From a bacterium (lineage in GTDB: Bacteria > UBA8248), in contig OZ253442.1 of NCBI GenBank assembly GCA_965261085.1, forward strand, positions 2,144,001 through 2,208,000: 64,000 nucleotides of DNA. The letters are read 5' to 3'. Each line of letters begins with the position of its first letter. Position 1 is the first letter of the stretch. This document shows, in pieces, positions 2,390 to 9,162 of the stretch. The notes under the pieces are model-generated. The model ran no database searches. It was not told where the DNA came from and saw only the letters and a program-made list of their open reading frames with translations. The position numbers and the translations under genes are program-made.

Positions 2390-3424
2390 TCAGGCGCGCT
2401 GCCCGGCCGCGGGGCGCTGGAAATGGGGGAGGACTTCTTCGCCGAGCAGCCGAATCGAGTTGAGTATCTTGCCGTGATCAAGCCCTGGAAACTGAATGCG
2501 GAAGTGCATGGAGGTCGTTCCGAGTTCCTCCTGATATCGTTTGATCTGGCGAATGCAATCATCCGGCGAGCCCACAATAAAGCGCCGGCGAAGATTTTCC
2601 ATAGCTTCAGCGCCCTGCTTCACCGGCCTCCCCTCGTCGTCCACCAAATGCCCCCAATCAAGATACTCCTGGTAGTTATAGAGCATGGGTTCTCGCGCCT
2701 CCTCCCAAGCTCGCTCGCTCTCTTCGGCCACGTAGGCTTCGCGTCTCAGGGGGAACTCCACCTGGGATGCGTCCTTCCCCGTCTCGGCCAGGGCATCGAG
2801 ATAGACTTGTTTTCGCTCCTTGAGCACCTTGAGCGGCGTGACCGGATCGGCGAGCCATGCGTTTCCCATGCGTGCGGCGCGGCGGATAGCGGCGGGCAGC
2901 TTGGCCGCCACCCAAATGGGAGGGCATGGCTTCTGCACCGGGCGAGGCATGAGGGTGACATCCTCCATGGGAAAGTAAGGGCCCGTGTGTGTCACGCCCC
3001 GCTCCGTCATTAACCGGCGAACCAGTCCGAGAGCCTCCTCAAAACGGGCGGCCCGTTGCTCGAAAGGAACATTAAAAGCCGCGAATTCCTCCCGCCTGTA
3101 GCCGAGTCCCACCCCCAGCACGAAGCGGCCCCGGGACATGATGTCCAGGACCGCGGCGTCCTCGGCCACCGCCAGCGGGTGATAGAAGGGAAGGAGGAGG
3201 ACGCAGGTGCCGATGCGCATCTTCTCCGTCCGGGTAGCGATGCCGGCGCAGGTCACCATGTTGGAGGGAAAATAGCCGTTATCCTCCACCATGTGGTGTT
3301 CGCTCGTCGTCACCATGTCGAAGCCGTACTTCTCCGCCAGGGCGATCTGCTCCAGGGAATTGTGATAGGCATCCACCCAGTGCCCAGTGCGAGACTGATA
3401 GCTGTAGTGCAAGGCGAACTTCAT
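2390..3424 (-). CDS. LLM-class (luciferase-like) flavin-dependent oxidoreductase
   Basis: Motifs AEKYGFD..SEHH, HPL.VAEDAA.LD..S.GRF.LG.G.GYR.EF and P.PVQKP.PPIW; GGAGG RBS upstream. Confidence 0.9.
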   Translation of the reverse strand: MKFALHYSYQSRTGHWVDAYHNSLEQIALAEKYGFDMVTTSEHHMVEDNGYFPSNMVTCAGIATRTEKMRIGTCVLLLPFYHPLAVAEDAAVLDIMSRGRFVLGVGLGYRREEFAAFNVPFEQRAARFEEALGLVRRLMTERGVTHTGPYFPMEDVTLMPRPVQKPCPPIWVAAKLPAAIRRAARMGNAWLADPVTPLKVLKERKQVYLDALAETGKDASQVEFPLRREAYVAEESERAWEEAREPMLYNYQEYLDWGHLVDDEGRPVKQGAEAMENLRRRFIVGSPDDCIRQIKRYQEELGTTSMHFRIQFPGLDHGKILNSIRLLGEEVLPHFQRPAAGQRA

Positions 3425-3587
3425 AGCTCCATCCTCCTAAACGATCCGGTTCGTTGGCCACTCACATCTACGCTCCAGACAAAACACATATAAGCCGAAA
3501 TATCCCGGCCCTTGAAATGACTCGTTTCGGAAATGGAGATGGGAAATCGCCTGAGCCGTGTTTTTCAGAGAACTCTTCAACATGAAT

Positions 3588-5003
3588 TCAAGATTCGATC
3601 GTGTATTTGGACAGGACGCCCCCGGACTTGCCGCGCGGGACGAACTGGCCGTAGCCCGGTTGTTGCATGAGCTCACCCTCCCGGAGGACCACCTTTCCGC
3701 GCAGGAGACTGAGCTCCAGCCGGCCGCTAAGCTCCCATCCCTCATAGAGCGTGTAATCGGAATTCGTGTGCTGCCCCGCCGCCGTCACGGTCGAACGCCC
3801 ATCCGGGTCGATGACGACGAGGTCGGCGTCGGAGCCGACGAGAAGCCCTCCTTTCTGCGGGTAGAGACCCAGGGCGCGCGCCGGATTCTCACTCGTGAGC
3901 TGCACGAGGCGCTCGGCCGAAATCCTCCCGCGGGCAACGCCCTCGCTGAAGAGAACCGGAAGGAGGGTCTCGATGCCGGGAGCCCCGAAGGGCGCTTCGG
4001 TGAAGGGCGGGTCATTCTTCTGCGCCTGGCTACAGGGGGCGTGATCGCTCCCGATGACGTTGATCCATCCGTCCTGGATGCCCTTCCAGAGAGCGGAGAC
4101 GTCCGCCTCCTCCCGCAGCGGAGGCGCCACCTTGGCCAGGCTTCCCCGCTCCCGCACGGCCGCCCCCGTGAGGGTCAGATACTGCGGGCAGGTTTCCACG
4201 ACGATGTCCTTCCCGGCCGCCAGCGCGCGCCGCGCCTCATCGAGGGCTTGCGCCGCCGTGAGGTGGACGATGTAAAGCGGGCAGCCCGCAAGATCCGCGA
4301 GGTGGATCGACCGCGCTACCGACTCGGCCTCCAACTGGGGCGGGCGTGTGTATTCCAGGAATTCGGCGCCGTCCATTCCGGCATCGAGGGCCTTGTTCTC
4401 CAGGTAGTCGATGACCAGGCCGTTTTCGGCGTGGACGAGCACGGTGCCGCCATGACGCCCCACGATATCGAGCGCGGCGTAGAAGTAGTCGTCCGGGATG
4501 CATCGGCCGCGGCCCCGCTTTCGGTAGCCCATCATGACCTTGAAGGTGGTGACGCCGCTATCGATGGCCTTGGGGATCTCGGCGAGATACTCGAAATCCT
4601 CGAAGATCCAGGCGTGCAGCGAGAAGTCGATCACGCTCTGCGCTTCGCCCTCCTCGCGGCAACGCTGCAGCGTGGAGAGCATGGTCTCATTCTCCTCGCC
4701 CGTGGCGAAGGGAACCATGGTCGTGACTCCTCCGTGCGCGGCGCTCCGCGCAACGTCGGACAGGGAATCGACATGGGAGGAGTACGCCCTGAAGTGGACA
4801 TGGGGGTCGACGACACCCGGAAGAATGAGCTTGCCCGGCACCTCCAGGACCTCCTCGGCGGCGGGCATACTTTCCGGCGCGCCCACACAGGCGACCCTCC
4901 CGTCTCGAACGCCGAGAGCAGCCTCCTGCCGGCCGTGACCGGATACGATTGCGCCGCCTTTCACGAGCAGGTCGAGCGGTTTCTGCTGGGACCTATCTGT
5001 CAT
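3588..5003 (-). CDS. Cyclic amidohydrolase (dihydropyrimidinase/hydantoinase/allantoinase family)
   Basis: PG.VDPHVH, A.HGGVTT, FKVMM (candidate carbamylated Lys), VHAEN, IVHLT, ETCPQYL, GSDHAP and G.L.VGSDADLV. Confidence 0.88.
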   Translation of the reverse strand: MTDRSQQKPLDLLVKGGAIVSGHGRQEAALGVRDGRVACVGAPESMPAAEEVLEVPGKLILPGVVDPHVHFRAYSSHVDSLSDVARSAAHGGVTTMVPFATGEENETMLSTLQRCREEGEAQSVIDFSLHAWIFEDFEYLAEIPKAIDSGVTTFKVMMGYRKRGRGRCIPDDYFYAALDIVGRHGGTVLVHAENGLVIDYLENKALDAGMDGAEFLEYTRPPQLEAESVARSIHLADLAGCPLYIVHLTAAQALDEARRALAAGKDIVVETCPQYLTLTGAAVRERGSLAKVAPPLREEADVSALWKGIQDGWINVIGSDHAPCSQAQKNDPPFTEAPFGAPGIETLLPVLFSEGVARGRISAERLVQLTSENPARALGLYPQKGGLLVGSDADLVVIDPDGRSTVTAAGQHTNSDYTLYEGWELSGRLELSLLRGKVVLREGELMQQPGYGQFVPRGKSGGVLSKYTIES

Positions 5004-5384: not shown

Positions 5385-6701
5385 TTAATACTCGAACACC
5401 GTGGGGCCGTCCACCTTTTCGGTCAGCGCCGCTACGGCCGCGCGGGCTGCGCCGAGGCGCCATTCGCGCTCGGCCTCGGGCGTCCGGGAGGGATCGCCGA
5501 AAGGATGGTGAAAATGTCCGGCGCGGTTGTTGACGATTCGGTTGACCCCGATGTCACGCGCCACGTCGGGCAGACAGGTGACGATGACGGTGGGGATGGC
5601 CTCCCGCTCCAAGGCTCTCGCCAGCGCAGCCCCGCTGCGCGTGCCGGTTCCTCACGTGGCGGGGAGGACGACGCCCTCGACCCCGGCCTTTTTGAGCTCC
5701 GCGGCCCAGGCGCGGCCGATGCCGTCCATCTCGGCGAAGGCGCCGCCGTTCCCGCAGGTGCTCAGAAAATCATCGTGGAGCGCGGCGATTTCGCCCTCGT
5801 TTTCTAACCGCCGGAAGGCGTCCACGGCGAGCATGCGGTCGGGCTCCTCGTTCACGAACACGGTGTTGAAGCCCCCGTGGATCGAGATGAAGGCGCCGCC
5901 CGGAAGGGCGTCTTTCCCCTCGAAGGAGTAGGTGGCCCAGTTCTCGTTCCTTGAGCCGGCGAAGCGATCCGGGTTGCCGGGGGGCACCATGCCGCCTTCT
6001 GATACGATGGCGATGCGGGCCTTTTTGAGATCGGCGATAGGCTTAGGCGGAGCTATCTCTTCCAGAACGGGCACTTCGAGTTCCGTCTCGTAGGGCTCGC
6101 CCTTGATTTTCTGGAGAACCATATCGACGGCGCGCCGCGAAGTCGGAAGCTCGGCGATTTCGTTGTAGCGGATGCCGCGCGGGAGGTAGCCATCGTCTGC
6201 GGCATTGCCGACCTCCTCGCCCCGGGCGAGCTTGAGCCCCAGGCGGGCGGCGGCTTCTAAGGCCTCTTCCATCCCGGCGGCGGACGCGGCTGCGGGGACG
6301 GTGTGAACGCTGATTCCGGCGGCGGGAAAGCCCGGATTCTCAGGGTGCATGGCGGTGACGACGGGAATGCCCGCCTCCTGCGCTGCGCGGCAGACGGCGG
6401 CGCAGGCGAGCCCGAAGCGCCCGGCGTTGAAAGCGGGCCCGGCGAGAACGAGATCGGGAGAAAACGCCATCACCAGCGCGATGGCCTCGGCGGCGCATGT
6501 TTTTTCATTCTCGGCGAAAAGACCGTCTCCCGCAAAGACGGTGCCGATGACTTCGGCGTCCTCGCCCAGGATTTTATCGAGCAATACGCCGGGGCCGACG
6601 GGGCCGGGCCGGGTGGATACGGGATGATCGCTTTTCTCCTCGCCCCCGACACCTGCGAAAAACTGGTTCAAGTAGTGAACGACCCGAAGTTTAGTGCTCA
6701 T
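5385..6701 (-). CDS. grdB: Glycine/sarcosine/betaine reductase selenoprotein B-like, 438 aa with in-frame UGA (Sec350) at 5654-5652
   Basis: ORFs 5652..6701 and 5385..5612 are in one frame. Readthrough gives ...VVLPAT-U-GTGTRSGAALARALEREAIP...GVNRIV...HPFGDP...TVFEY. GrdB motifs: VHYLNQFFAGVGGEE, GPAFNAGR, PENPG, GNPDR, HGG. Confidence 0.9.
5624..5640 (-). promoter_or_regulatory. Candidate bacterial SECIS hairpin of grdB
   Basis: mRNA: UGA, 11 nt, then GCGCAGC-GGG-GCUGCGC (perfect 7-bp stem with a G loop). Confidence 0.65.
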
Positions 6702-6915
6702 AGCCTGGCCTCCTCGTATGAATTCCTTGAAACATATAGGAAATTACACGTGATTATATACTTAATAAAGTGAGCCTCAAGATGTATATTTCTTTGAATG
6801 GGTACTTTATCAACAATCAAAGGTAGAGAGTTTTTCATCGTAGTTCCTGATTCTGGTTTTTTTGTCGATGACCTGCCTGAGTTCATCAATGACCCTAGAA
6901 ATATCATCCCCCTGT

Positions 6916-7239
6916 TCAATTCGTTAGGTAGATAGTGCTTTCATCTGTCTTGCCGTCTTCTTTTAGTTTGTTATATTCGGCTTGCGGCATCGACTCTATA
7001 TGCGTGATAGTTTTGGACTTAACGACATGCTCTTTTTCGTTAAGTGACACGCTACGAGAATCTACTTGGTTGATGATATTGACAGTCGGCTGTTTCTCTA
7101 TCCCGTCAATTTTTTCGCGTAGTTCGCGAAACTGCTTCTTATGAAAGAGCCAACCAATCATCAAACCAACAGCCACAGCTATACCGTAGGATAGTGCTTC
7201 CCTTGCAATAAACTTGACCAACGATTCAGGAAGTTCCAT
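6916..7239 (-). CDS. Hypothetical single-TM protein in an AT-rich insert
   Basis: 107-aa ORF with one hydrophobic segment (ALSYGIAVAVGLMIGWLF); composition much more AT-rich than the flanks. Confidence 0.55.
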   Translation of the reverse strand: MELPESLVKFIAREALSYGIAVAVGLMIGWLFHKKQFRELREKIDGIEKQPTVNIINQVDSRSVSLNEKEHVVKSKTITHIESMPQAEYNKLKEDGKTDESTIYLTN

Positions 7240-7414
7240 GTTCTCTTACCACCAGTTGTGCCTAGCTTAGTCAAGTTTATAATCACGCATTCTTAAATCT
7301 GCAAAAGTAGGCGTGAAATTTGCTTTAGTTTTCAAAATACAATTCCCGCCAAACATTTTAGCCCCGTGTCGAACACCCGGCAGGGCGAATATCCCGATCA
7401 ACGATCCCCCAACC

Positions 7415-8698
7415 TCAGTACGCCTTGCCCACCATGTTGTTGATGTCCTTCGCCCACTCGCTGGCGTAGTAGTCGCTGTCGACCAGGGTAAAGGCCTCGC
7501 GGACGTTGCATCTCTTACCGTTGTAGAATTCGACGACCTCGGAGCCGATGACGCGCTCCACCGCAGGGGCGGCGATGCGCTCCCCCTGCATACCCTTGGA
7601 AATGACGGCGTCGGCCTCGGGCACATGAAAGACGAGCGGGAACTCGCCCGACCCCGGACGGCCCACCTCGTAGATGATCGGAACGGCGCTCACGCCCATC
7701 TGCTCGAGCGCCTGGACGGTGAGCCAGTAGTCCACCGTGGAGTTGCCGCCGCCCTCGAAGGCGAGAACCGCGCCGTCGGCCTTGAGGAGGGTGGCGAGCT
7801 TGGCCACGTATTGCGCCGAGCGCTCCTTGAGCGCCTGGTTGTCGTGGTGGCCGCGCGTGATGACCATGCCTGCGAAATTGAGGTCCACCCCGTGGCGGCG
7901 GTAGAGCTCGTATATGAGCGGCATGTTGCAGTGCAGATAGGTCGGCGCCTTCTGCTGCGTCTTGTAATTCGCCCCCACCACCGCGCCGTCGAGCATCTCG
8001 TTCGGGTGAATGAGCGTGGGAAGCGAATCCCCCAGATTTTTGCCGTACATGAAGGTCTGAACCATGGACGCCTGGTGCATGACCTGATCGACGAAAATCA
8101 CCCGGGGAAGGCCGGGGTCGACGTCGCCGATCTCGAACCTTTCCAAGCTAACGGGTTCGAGCTCCGCCGTGTGCGCGGCCAGCCGGGACGCCACCTTCAG
8201 CGTCGCCAGGCGCACGGCGTCGTCATGCGCTTCGTTCGAGGCGCCATCCAGCGGCTCATAGCAGGCGACGAGATTCGCGGTCTCTGAATTCGTGCAGTGC
8301 ATCGCACCAGGACCGGACATATCGATAATCCCCTCGCGAAAGCTCATGATGCCCGTCATGGGACCGAGGAAATGGGTGGTGCTGATGACGCACATCCCAG
8401 CGAGCTTGTGGGTGCGGCCTTGGCCTGCGGTCTTCGCCGGGCCGAGGAATCCGGGGAAAGCGCATGAGCGCCCGCTTACCTTGTAGAGAGGCTCCACCGC
8501 ATCTAAGACGTTGGTGATCCGCACCGAATCTCCCGGCATGGCGGCGTGAAAGCTGACATCCTTGAGCGTGCCGTCTTCGAGCGCCAGTTCACGGAGGGCA
8601 TCGGCATCCACGGTGAGCGTTTTATCCCGGTACGCGAAGCGCTTTCCGAGGATGATTTTTGATACGGGAAATATACCCATCTCCAATTTCATGGACAT
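7415..8698 (-). CDS. grdE: Glycine/sarcosine/betaine reductase component B proprotein (GrdE/GrdG/GrdI family)
   Basis: PGDSVRIT.V.D.VEP..KV, FPG, G.G.TH.L.G, FREGIIDMSGPGA, HP.E.LDGAVV, LY.RHG.DLNF.G and EG.GN motifs. GGAGG RBS just past the grdA stop; exact ATG (8701/8698/8692) uncertain. Confidence 0.85.
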   Translation of the reverse strand: MSMKLEMGIFPVSKIILGKRFAYRDKTLTVDADALRELALEDGTLKDVSFHAAMPGDSVRITNVLDAVEPLYKVSGRSCAFPGFLGPAKTAGQGRTHKLAGMCVISTTHFLGPMTGIMSFREGIIDMSGPGAMHCTNSETANLVACYEPLDGASNEAHDDAVRLATLKVASRLAAHTAELEPVSLERFEIGDVDPGLPRVIFVDQVMHQASMVQTFMYGKNLGDSLPTLIHPNEMLDGAVVGANYKTQQKAPTYLHCNMPLIYELYRRHGVDLNFAGMVITRGHHDNQALKERSAQYVAKLATLLKADGAVLAFEGGGNSTVDYWLTVQALEQMGVSAVPIIYEVGRPGSGEFPLVFHVPEADAVISKGMQGERIAAPAVERVIGSEVVEFYNGKRCNVREAFTLVDSDYYASEWAKDINNMVGKAY

Positions 8699-8709: not shown

Positions 8710-9162
8710 CTACCTCGCCGTGCGCATTTCGGCGAGATCGCTTTCTATCTGCTCTAAATCGAGCACCATTTCCATCATGAGAAGTTTATCGGCGTACAGG
8801 TCCTCGGGAACCTGGGATCGCACCTTCTCCTCGAGGATGTGAAAAACGGGGAGTCCCAACGAGACTCCCGCCAGGGGCCCGGCCCAACTGGGGTCCCCGG
8901 TGGTCAGCGTTTCGGCCGCGAGCCGAAGGCCTTCACCGGGCATTCCCAATACCACCATCAAATTTTCCGGCCCGACCTCATCCGCAATCGATTTGATGGC
9001 GGCCTGGTTTTCCAAGTCCATGGCGCCAGCGGAGGTTCAGACGAAACACTCCGTCTTCTGGAATACGATCTCCGCTCCCGCCGCCTCGAGGCATTCGGCA
9101 ATCAGCGGACCGGGAACGCCGTCCCGCTCGCCCAGCGCAATCACCTTCTTGCCCTTGAACAT
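8710..9162 (-). CDS. grdA: Glycine reductase selenoprotein A, 150 aa with in-frame UGA (Sec42) at 9039-9037
   Basis: ATG 9162 follows GGGAGG. Translation: [25 protein letters not shown]...[18 protein letters not shown]...[23 protein letters not shown]...MMEMVLD, with the canonical CxxU motif. Confidence 0.93.

Follow-up and report, generated by a model that had tools for sequence, protein, structure and literature searches.

A selenocysteine-containing GrdB-like protein with UxxGxxS in place of UxxCxxC, and its GrdE-like partner with tyrosine at the pyruvoyl position

Can a GrdB-type selenoprotein do without the two cysteines that follow its selenocysteine (Sec, U)? The question is raised by a grdB-like gene on a 64,000-nucleotide stretch of contig OZ253442.1 (assembly GCA_965261085.1, positions 2,144,001 to 2,208,000 of the forward strand; hereafter the window) from a bacterium of the lineage UBA8248. 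The U-x-x-C-x-x-C motif of GrdB, GrdF and GrdH is cited to Wagner 1999 (PMC6778437; 2026 review PMC13188914), and the passages concerned in PMC6778437, PMC10838667 and PMC13188914 read it as a protection of Sec or as a contact with GrdA. In the window gene both cysteines are replaced. Our reading, to which as a whole we give a probability of about 0.65, is that the altered motif, U-G-T-G-T-R-S, would reflect no damage and would be fixed in a large subfamily as its active-site signature, and that the gene would encode the functional Sec-containing, substrate-side "protein B" of a divergent glycine reductase-type enzyme, from a four-gene operon.

The codons around Sec350, read 5' to 3' on the minus strand, are ACG TGA GGA ACC GGC ACG CGC AGC, which translate as T-U-G-T-G-T-R-S. 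The initial annotation had given the motif in this form and had noted that both replaced codons (GGC and AGC) are a single base away from TGC, and the letters confirm both statements. Past the TGA the frame stays open for 88 further residues (Table 1). Homology searches with residues 1-437 of the product placed it in the family, with matches to Pfam PF07355 (GRDB) at 398.5 bits (cut-off 22) and to TIGR01918 at 411.5 bits (cut-off 65.45), the latter from end to end (1-431 of 431). Its scores lay under all the equivalog cut-offs, reaching 393 vs 602 bits for GrdB (TIGR01917), 412 vs 800 for GrdF (NF040794) and 348 vs 775 for GrdH (NF040795), and the PrdB model TIGR04483 gave 78.5 bits, under its cut-off of 300. 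At the site where GrdB, GrdF and GrdH are recognized by U-x-x-C-x-x-C, the protein reads U-G-T-G-T-R-S instead. The residue motifs listed for GrdB and GrdF in the methods of PMC9751293, namely, CGD, [AI]HGGxD or IHGGYDR, and TxGNxTxV or TTGTGT, are not present as such either, the translation having AGD, IHGGFN and TCGNGGAF; the YxNx6GGE and GPxFNAGR[YF]G motifs are retained.

The altered motif is highly conserved. A six-frame search of 40 related genomes yielded 18 orthologous loci, 16 of them from the same genus (86-95% identity) and 2 from the same family (77% and 68%); no ortholog was found by this search in 6 of the 22 other genomes of the genus. PATUGTGTRSGA was present in all 18 loci, with the TGA at the same place, and an in-frame TGA occupied the same site in every more distant relative examined. 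U-GTGTRS was likewise found in 24 of 25 named public loci, down to 59% identity, while the 25th, from a Rokubacteria metagenome-assembled genome (MAG) at 48% identity, read UGSCNRC. The named loci come from MAGs labelled as Nitrospinota, Nitrospinaceae or Candidatus Tectomicrobia and share members with the related-genome set. Among 23 distinct nucleotide sequences of orthologs and paralogs, the Gly353 codon appeared as GGC, GGT, GGA or GGG, the residue being unchanged. A paralog in the same genome (47% identity), which also occurs in two relatives, carries U-GSGTRS.

The survey of positions U+3 and U+6 was carried out at the DNA level, the protein-database matches stopping at the Sec. A profile scan of species genomes gave 579 family matches, of which the best 80 were kept. 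Among these, 68 carried UxxCxxC (nearly all as STUGTCTRC and mostly in Bacillota), 7 UxxGxxS, 3 UxxGxxC and 1 UxxDxxC, and 1 ended before the site, which bears out the statement in the initial annotation that STUGTCTRC is the canonical form. Two pattern scans of species genomes were then aimed at the glycine forms. The first, with U-G-[TS]-G-T-R-x-G, returned at least 120 loci, at least 97 of them genuine family members; at least 75 UxxGxxC and at least 22 UxxGxxS genes were among the matches listed, one of the UxxGxxC loci lying in a genome flagged as unpublished. The second, which required Ser (AGY) at U+6, returned at least 119 loci and at least 103 genuine UxxGxxS genes. By the titles of the records among the matches listed, UxxGxxC belongs to Actinomycetota, Acidimicrobiales, Solirubrobacterales, Synergistaceae, Methylomirabilales and strain DCMF. 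For its part, UxxGxxS belongs to Tectomicrobia/Nitrospinota, Entotheonella, Deltaproteobacteria, Binatia, Thermodesulfobacteriota/Desulfobaccales, Dehalococcoidia/Chloroflexota, Acidimicrobiia, Candidatus Spongiisociaceae, Rokubacteria, Planctomycetaceae, Acidobacteriota and, again, DCMF.

Trees were built from the C-terminal half of the proteins (179 rows after merging at 93% identity), with the trait columns excluded and PrdB-like proteins as the outgroup. In the FastTree phylogeny 25 of the 26 UxxGxxS rows formed one clade (local support, 98), and the same clade was recovered by IQ-TREE under a mixture model with 73 rows (Shimodaira-Hasegawa-like approximate likelihood ratio test, 90), in agreement with the suggestion that the variant could define a subfamily. 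The remaining UxxGxxS row, from a Dehalococcoidia, stood elsewhere in the tree on a long branch. The sister of the clade was a UxxGxxC group composed of Actinomycetota and a DCMF copy (support, 80), and an order UxxCxxC to UxxGxxC to UxxGxxS is plausible for this clade. Over the trees UxxGxxC needed 5 to 6 changes, at least 3 of them forced by well-supported FastTree branches; therefore, the cysteine pair has been lost repeatedly. As an observation apart, an 8.3-Mb Deltaproteobacteria MAG gave 27 GrdE-family profile matches, many of them beside GrdB-like genes with UGTCTRS (UxxCxxS), which looks like a large expansion of protein B-type modules.

The partner genes were also conserved. The core grdC-grdA-grdE-like-grdB-like was kept in three distant orthologous loci, the flanks of which differ. 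The product of the grdE-like gene scored 253 bits against GrdG (cut-off 780) and 125.7 bits against FarE (NF053623; cut-off 675). In GrdE, the Cys of an SGNC motif becomes the pyruvoyl group. Where nine aligned GrdE/GrdG-type proteins of named glycine-fermenting Bacillota read SGNC, the window protein reads GANY, and in the same alignment the second conserved Cys of GrdE is absent from it as well. The position of the pyruvoyl Cys is occupied by Tyr in the window protein and in the orthologs and the paralog examined. In all nine cases examined the neighbor of a UxxGxxS gene was a Cys-less GrdE-like gene, with Asn-Tyr at the site in eight of them. The glycine-only state is not strictly linked to such a partner, one UxxGxxC gene of Pyramidobacter adjoining a GrdE of the SGNC type. 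Because Tyr replaces Cys, the subunit with which the GrdB-like protein pairs would carry no pyruvoyl group, and hence a primary or secondary amine would not be activated as a Schiff base.

A comparison with known systems helps to delimit what this enzyme might do. The window protein shares with GrdB, GrdF and GrdH of Peptoclostridium acidaminophilum and Acetoanaerobium sticklandii its full-length homology, the location of the Sec, which follows a beta-strand and opens a helix, and a selenocysteine insertion sequence (SECIS) directly downstream; their operons contain the same GrdA (CxxU), GrdC and GrdE-family partner. It differs from them in three motifs, which read U-GTGTRS, HGGFN and, in this genus, AGD where theirs read U-GTCTRC, HGGxD and CGD. 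The textbook Grd cluster differs too, since here the order is C-A-E-B, there is no trxA or trxB, the partner is devoid of the pyruvoyl Cys, and GrdD was not found in the genome.

Two systems come closer as regards the partner. GrdI of betaine reductase and FarE are described in PMC10838667 as being without the pyruvoyl Cys and hence not proproteins. As in GrdH/GrdI, the partner here would likewise not be a proprotein, the Cys being replaced in both (SGSF in GrdI and GANY here), and a partner of this kind implies that the leaving group of the substrate does not depend on a Schiff base. However, GrdH retains U-GTCTRC (three loci), the GrdH model is the one on which the window protein scores lowest, and GrdI differs from the window GrdE-like protein in the replacement residues and in a one-residue deletion. 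FarB/FarE of Cloacibacillus and Pyramidobacter resembles the window pair both in a Sec without the CxxC pair and in a Cys-less GrdE homolog (PMC10838667). There, GrdA is named as the proposed recipient of a carboxymethyl group from FarB, CxxC is called a protection of Sec against oxidation, and the far operon is reported to be induced by fluoroacetate. Unlike the window protein, FarB carries other replacements (in six Synergistota loci with FarB beside a FarE over the cut-off, UGTSSRC in 3 and UGTSSRG in 3) and forms a separate clade in the tree, and the window GrdE-like protein falls far below the FarE cut-off, as given above. A far-type operon also contains an antiporter and a radical-SAM gene, neither of which occurs in the window cluster, and the studied Synergistota hosts of FarB possess GrdD, unlike this genome. 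The UGTGTRC genes of Synergistaceae were considered as candidate FarB genes and rejected, FarE over the cut-off being found in 0 of 5 genomes. At a greater distance, PrdB of D-proline reductase and environmental PrdB-like proteins share the homologous C-terminal domain and the Sec position; these PrdB-like proteins are half the size of the GrdB-like one, and the three in this genome keep UxxCxxS.

On the basis of these likenesses, the following mechanism can be drawn. UGA350 would be decoded as Sec by means of the hairpin 11 nucleotides downstream, SelB and tRNA-Sec, all of which are present. The GrdB-like protein and its partner would form a pair without a pyruvoyl group, resembling betaine reductase GrdH/GrdI and fluoroacetate reductase FarB/FarE. 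Following the published GrdB and FarB schemes, the selenolate of Sec350 would attack the alpha-carbon of a carboxymethyl-X compound with a good leaving group, and the carboxymethyl group would then be handed to Sec42 of GrdA. The two-electron redox step and the Se-S bond would lie on GrdA (C-x-x-U), to be recycled by thioredoxin, and the CxxC of GrdB would be a protective extra, dispensable for turnover. Most likely, then, the cysteines next to the selenium are not essential, the selenolate appearing to act as a nucleophile and transfer catalyst with GrdA as its redox partner, and the substrate of the enzyme is probably a different one, other than a pyruvoyl-dependent amine.

A rival explanation is that the lost CxxC has been replaced from elsewhere in the chain. 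The initial annotation had proposed relocated partner thiols and had pointed to cysteines in STCGNG and VTCLP, which are real and correspond to Cys316 and Cys376. Borne on loops that flank Sec350, one or both might protect or resolve the selenium through a Se-S bond that forms reversibly. Cys316 was found in 13 of 26 UxxGxxS rows of the merged set and Cys376 in 21 of 26, each being absent from all 153 other rows; one or both were present in 23/26 UxxGxxS rows vs 0/153 others, and the 42 loci listed for the clade of the window gene have both without exception. The geometry is also suggestive. In an AlphaFold2 model based on a 29-sequence alignment (mean predicted local distance difference test score, 89.6), which has strands at 311-314, 343-348 and 371-375 and a helix at 351-366, Cys316, Sec350 and Cys376 each stand at the C-terminal end of one of three consecutive beta-strands. 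The domain appears to be Rossmann-like, a fold in which the ends of consecutive strands are as a rule neighbors. This fold class comes from Foldseek, which returned only weak matches, to type I periplasmic-binding-protein domains (TM score of about 0.19); the PDB, searched by sequence, gave 0 hits, and neither search supplied a structural template for the active site.

However, 42 of the 103 UxxGxxS genes listed in the second pattern scan lack both Cys316 and a Cys at U+25/26, among them whole lineages such as the Dehalococcoidia ITAM/ITAL and the Acidimicrobiia VTAL types, so substitute thiols are not required. In addition, the association comes from essentially one clade and thus represents about one evolutionary event per site. 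Nor is a thiol at the end of strand 371-375 new, since canonical UxxCxxC proteins already have the adjacent Cys375 (56 of 73 rows), a distribution that led us to reject Cys375 as a compensating gain after loss of the Cys at U+3. The thiols that had been proposed do exist and, in this sample, are exclusive to UxxGxxS proteins, but relocation is not supported as a general rule, and we consider it rather unlikely that it explains the motif. Within the reading that we prefer, Cys316 and Cys376 may serve the clade of the window gene as a local, lineage-specific back-up thiol, which would not be a requirement of the subfamily.

According to a second alternative, the enzyme would not transfer carboxymethyl groups at all but would carry out some other selenium-dependent reaction, such as dehalogenation for detoxification or a redox relay of thiols and selenols in a host that is mostly aerobic. 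Of the textbook hallmarks, three or four are indeed missing (the pyruvoyl group, CxxC and GrdD). GrdD (component C alpha, NF040747) was not found in the genome, where the best match gave 19.4 bits against a cut-off of 350, nor, at an E value of 1e-10 or less, in any of the 41 genomes formed by this one and its 40 relatives, carriers of canonical UGTCTRC genes included, although this set does have genes for GrdC, GrdA and protein B. The same search did not find it in an Entotheonella, an Acidimicrobiales or a Deltaproteobacteria MAG, and as a positive control it recovered GrdD from 2 of 5 other genomes at 558-600 bits (four times from DCMF and once from a Pyramidobacter MAG). By their record titles the carrier lineages are largely not classical amino acid fermenters, and a pathway context is missing, since conservation does not extend to the flanking genes. 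On the other hand, the equivalog cut-offs are exceeded by both GrdA and GrdC, GrdA retains C-x-x-U, and the four-gene group is kept intact throughout the clade, for which a relay identical to that of the known Grd enzymes is the simplest explanation. A wholly different reaction is accordingly judged improbable.

A third possibility is that the TGA is a true stop and that the product is the 349-amino-acid protein of the databases, the 88 downstream codons being untranslated. Of the database relatives that cover the C-terminal region, 40 of 41 are 348 to 363 amino acids long and were called only up to the TGA, but this length is explained by gene callers that cannot read Sec. Several data speak for translation beyond the codon. 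The frame past the TGA has stayed open and is conserved in family members with as little as 35-40% identity, TIGR01918 is matched over its whole length, and a full-length database homolog of 426 amino acids carries Cys at the Sec position followed by GTGTRC, which shows in passing that Cys forms of the glycine variant exist. The genome contains SelB (384 bits, cut-off 242), tRNA-Sec(tca) and two grdA genes with one TGA each. Finally, RNAalifold folded 17 sequences of the region into a SECIS-like hairpin with 9 pairs, 2 of them compensated by two-sided changes (CG to UA in 3 sequences and GC to AU in 1), one such change entailing an Ala-to-Thr substitution in the protein; only this comparative fold is informative, the single sequence in this GC-rich DNA folding no better than its shuffles (z, -0.33). 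Termination at the TGA is therefore very improbable.

Lastly, the gene might be taken for an ordinary GrdB gene with a base-call error at two codons, for a pseudogene or for a case of private decay, given that each replacement is a single base from TGC and that PMC6778437 treated a motif-less copy as a likely pseudogene, but the chance of this is negligible and the conservation data already refute it, because residues identical in 18/18 orthologous loci from independent assemblies rule out chance or sequencing error, and to this are added the synonymous variation at the Gly353 codon, the conserved residues past the TGA, a hairpin maintained by compensation and more than 100 further genes with the same motif in other phyla.

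Some points nevertheless weigh against the reading that we prefer. As GrdD, the textbook maker of acetyl phosphate, was not found, the downstream chemistry cannot be that of the textbook. A 713-nucleotide, foreign-looking spacer splits the grdE-like from the grdB-like gene, so their co-expression is not assured, and what speaks for a separate expression of the latter is a consensus promoter match. The exclusivity of Cys316 and Cys376 to UxxGxxS proteins would fit a compensating role. The near-invariant Cys of the CGD motif has been lost in this genus: position 57 is Ala in the window protein and in 16/16 orthologs of the genus and Cys in the 2 orthologs of the same family and in all more distant full-length relatives. 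Cys57 is in this way a third conserved cysteine that is lost, in this genus only. Finally, the function of the clade is deduced from sequence, and the role of Sec and CxxC in GrdB itself is a published proposal.

Going one step further, we tentatively propose, as a single joint claim that is possible yet rather doubtful, a distinct GrdD-less class of selenoenzymes made up of a UxxGxxS GrdB-like protein, a Tyr-type GrdE-like protein, GrdA and GrdC. In it, a selenolate with no partner thiol in its own chain would cleave a non-amine carboxymethyl-X compound (such as an onium compound or a haloacetate), the product of which would not be released as acetyl phosphate via GrdD, and the class would be carried by bacteria of the environment and of sponges (Tectomicrobia, Entotheonella, Binatia, Dehalococcoidia, Acidimicrobiia and others), most of them aerobic or microaerobic.

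The remaining features of the locus and of the genome are as follows (Table 1). The spacer between the grdE-like and grdB-like genes is an insertion hotspot in the genus, measuring 36-162 nucleotides in 14 of 22 orthologous loci and 398-2037 nucleotides of low-GC (guanine-plus-cytosine) DNA in the other 8. The cargo of the long spacers differs: a DNA methylase with an IS1595 transposase fragment, a PIN-domain gene with a 247-amino-acid partner, or HicA with DUF1902. Downstream of the grdB-like gene, the dihydropyrimidinase/hydantoinase-type amidohydrolase scored 392 bits, just under its cut-off of 393. A clue to the substrate was sought in this gene, the LLM oxidoreductase and the TctABC neighbors and was dropped, these genes not lying beside the operon in the three distant orthologous loci. 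The paralogous cluster is located 0.94 Mb from the window operon and adjoins polyamine/phosphonate-type ABC transporter genes; its GrdB-like protein keeps Cys316 and Cys376. The three half-size PrdB-like selenoprotein genes of the genome encode UPLCNRS (near 320 kb), UPLCMRS (813 kb) and UGLCNRS (505 kb), all with Cys at U+3, and genes similar to them occur in nearly all relatives. Proline reductase, as published, works without a protein A.

Table 1. Coordinates of the grdB-like gene, its operon and other features (window positions unless stated otherwise)
Feature	Position	Strand	Details
grdB-like selenoprotein B gene	5385..6701	minus	438 aa (amino acids) with Sec350; frame reads through a single TGA and ends at TAA 5385-5387
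TGA read as selenocysteine (U350)	5652..5654	minus	only in-frame TGA
Codons U+1 to U+6, G-T-G-T-R-S	5634..5651	minus	Gly353 (GGC, 5643-5645) and Ser356 (AGC, 5634-5636) in place of Cys
SECIS-like hairpin	5620..5644	minus	7-bp core stem at 5624-5640, 3-nt loop, start 11 nt past UGA; outer pairs reach 5620-5644
Ala57 codon	6531..6533	minus	in place of the near-invariant Cys of the family (CGD motif)
Cys316 codon, TGC (STCGNG)	5754..5756	minus	directly after strand 311-314
Cys376 codon, TGT (VTCLP)	5574..5576	minus	directly after strand 371-375
grdE-like subunit, 425 aa	7415..8692	minus	PF09338, 350.6 bits; Tyr243, TAC at 7964-7966
grdA, selenoprotein A, 150 aa	8710..9162	minus	NF040748, 198.7 bits (cut-off 130); one TGA, Sec42 at 9037-9039, C-F-V-U
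grdC, component C beta subunit, 476 aa	9199..10629	minus	NF040746, 576.1 bits (cut-off 450)
Low-GC spacer between grdE-like and grdB-like	6702..7414		713 nt; GC 0.41 vs 0.578 for the window
Two small open reading frames in the spacer	6698-6919 and 6916-7239	minus	no Pfam or NCBIfam match
Promoter-like site, TTGAGG-16-TATAAT	6780-6753	minus	consensus match, just upstream of grdB-like
Hydantoinase/dihydropyrimidinase-type amidohydrolase, F420/LLM-class oxidoreductase and TctA/TctB transporter genes	2390-5003		downstream of grdB-like
Paralogous cluster in the same genome	C1:1198000-1216000 of the genome		IclR-type regulator, grdA, grdC, grdE-like (SGNY), grdB-like (U-GSGTRS)

Whether the variant had been described before, a point raised by the initial annotation, can be answered in part. 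Loss of CxxC is in print for FarB (PMC10838667) and for a DCMF copy, which was called a likely pseudogene (PMC6778437), but the Gly/Ser form and its clade appear in neither, within the parts of the two papers that were covered. In our survey, strain DCMF carries both UxxGxxC and UxxGxxS copies, in grd-like clusters. The full-text literature search, which had the supplements of PMC10838667 and PMC6778437 outside its scope, found no description of the Gly/Ser form, of the UxxGxxS clade or of glycine reductase genes in Tectomicrobia, and in the main text of a Tectomicrobium metaproteome paper (PMC6081418) the terms selenoprotein, sarcosine, betaine and Grd do not occur (0 mentions). In selenoproteome surveys, GrdB and PrdB are entered simply as UxxC (table of PMC2398784). 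Since database entries end at the TGA, the family is largely invisible to protein-level surveys.

In the literature, UxxCxxC serves as a criterion of whether a GrdB-type gene is functional. The first Cys is replaced by Gly in several large clades, however, and both cysteines are replaced in a clade of at least 100 species-level genomes from many phyla. As Sec, the recoding hairpin and the GrdA and GrdC partners are kept throughout, these genes are natural variants with which the protective and catalytic roles of CxxC may be told apart, and they flag a widespread selenoenzyme in organisms that are not classical Stickland fermenters, sponge symbionts included.

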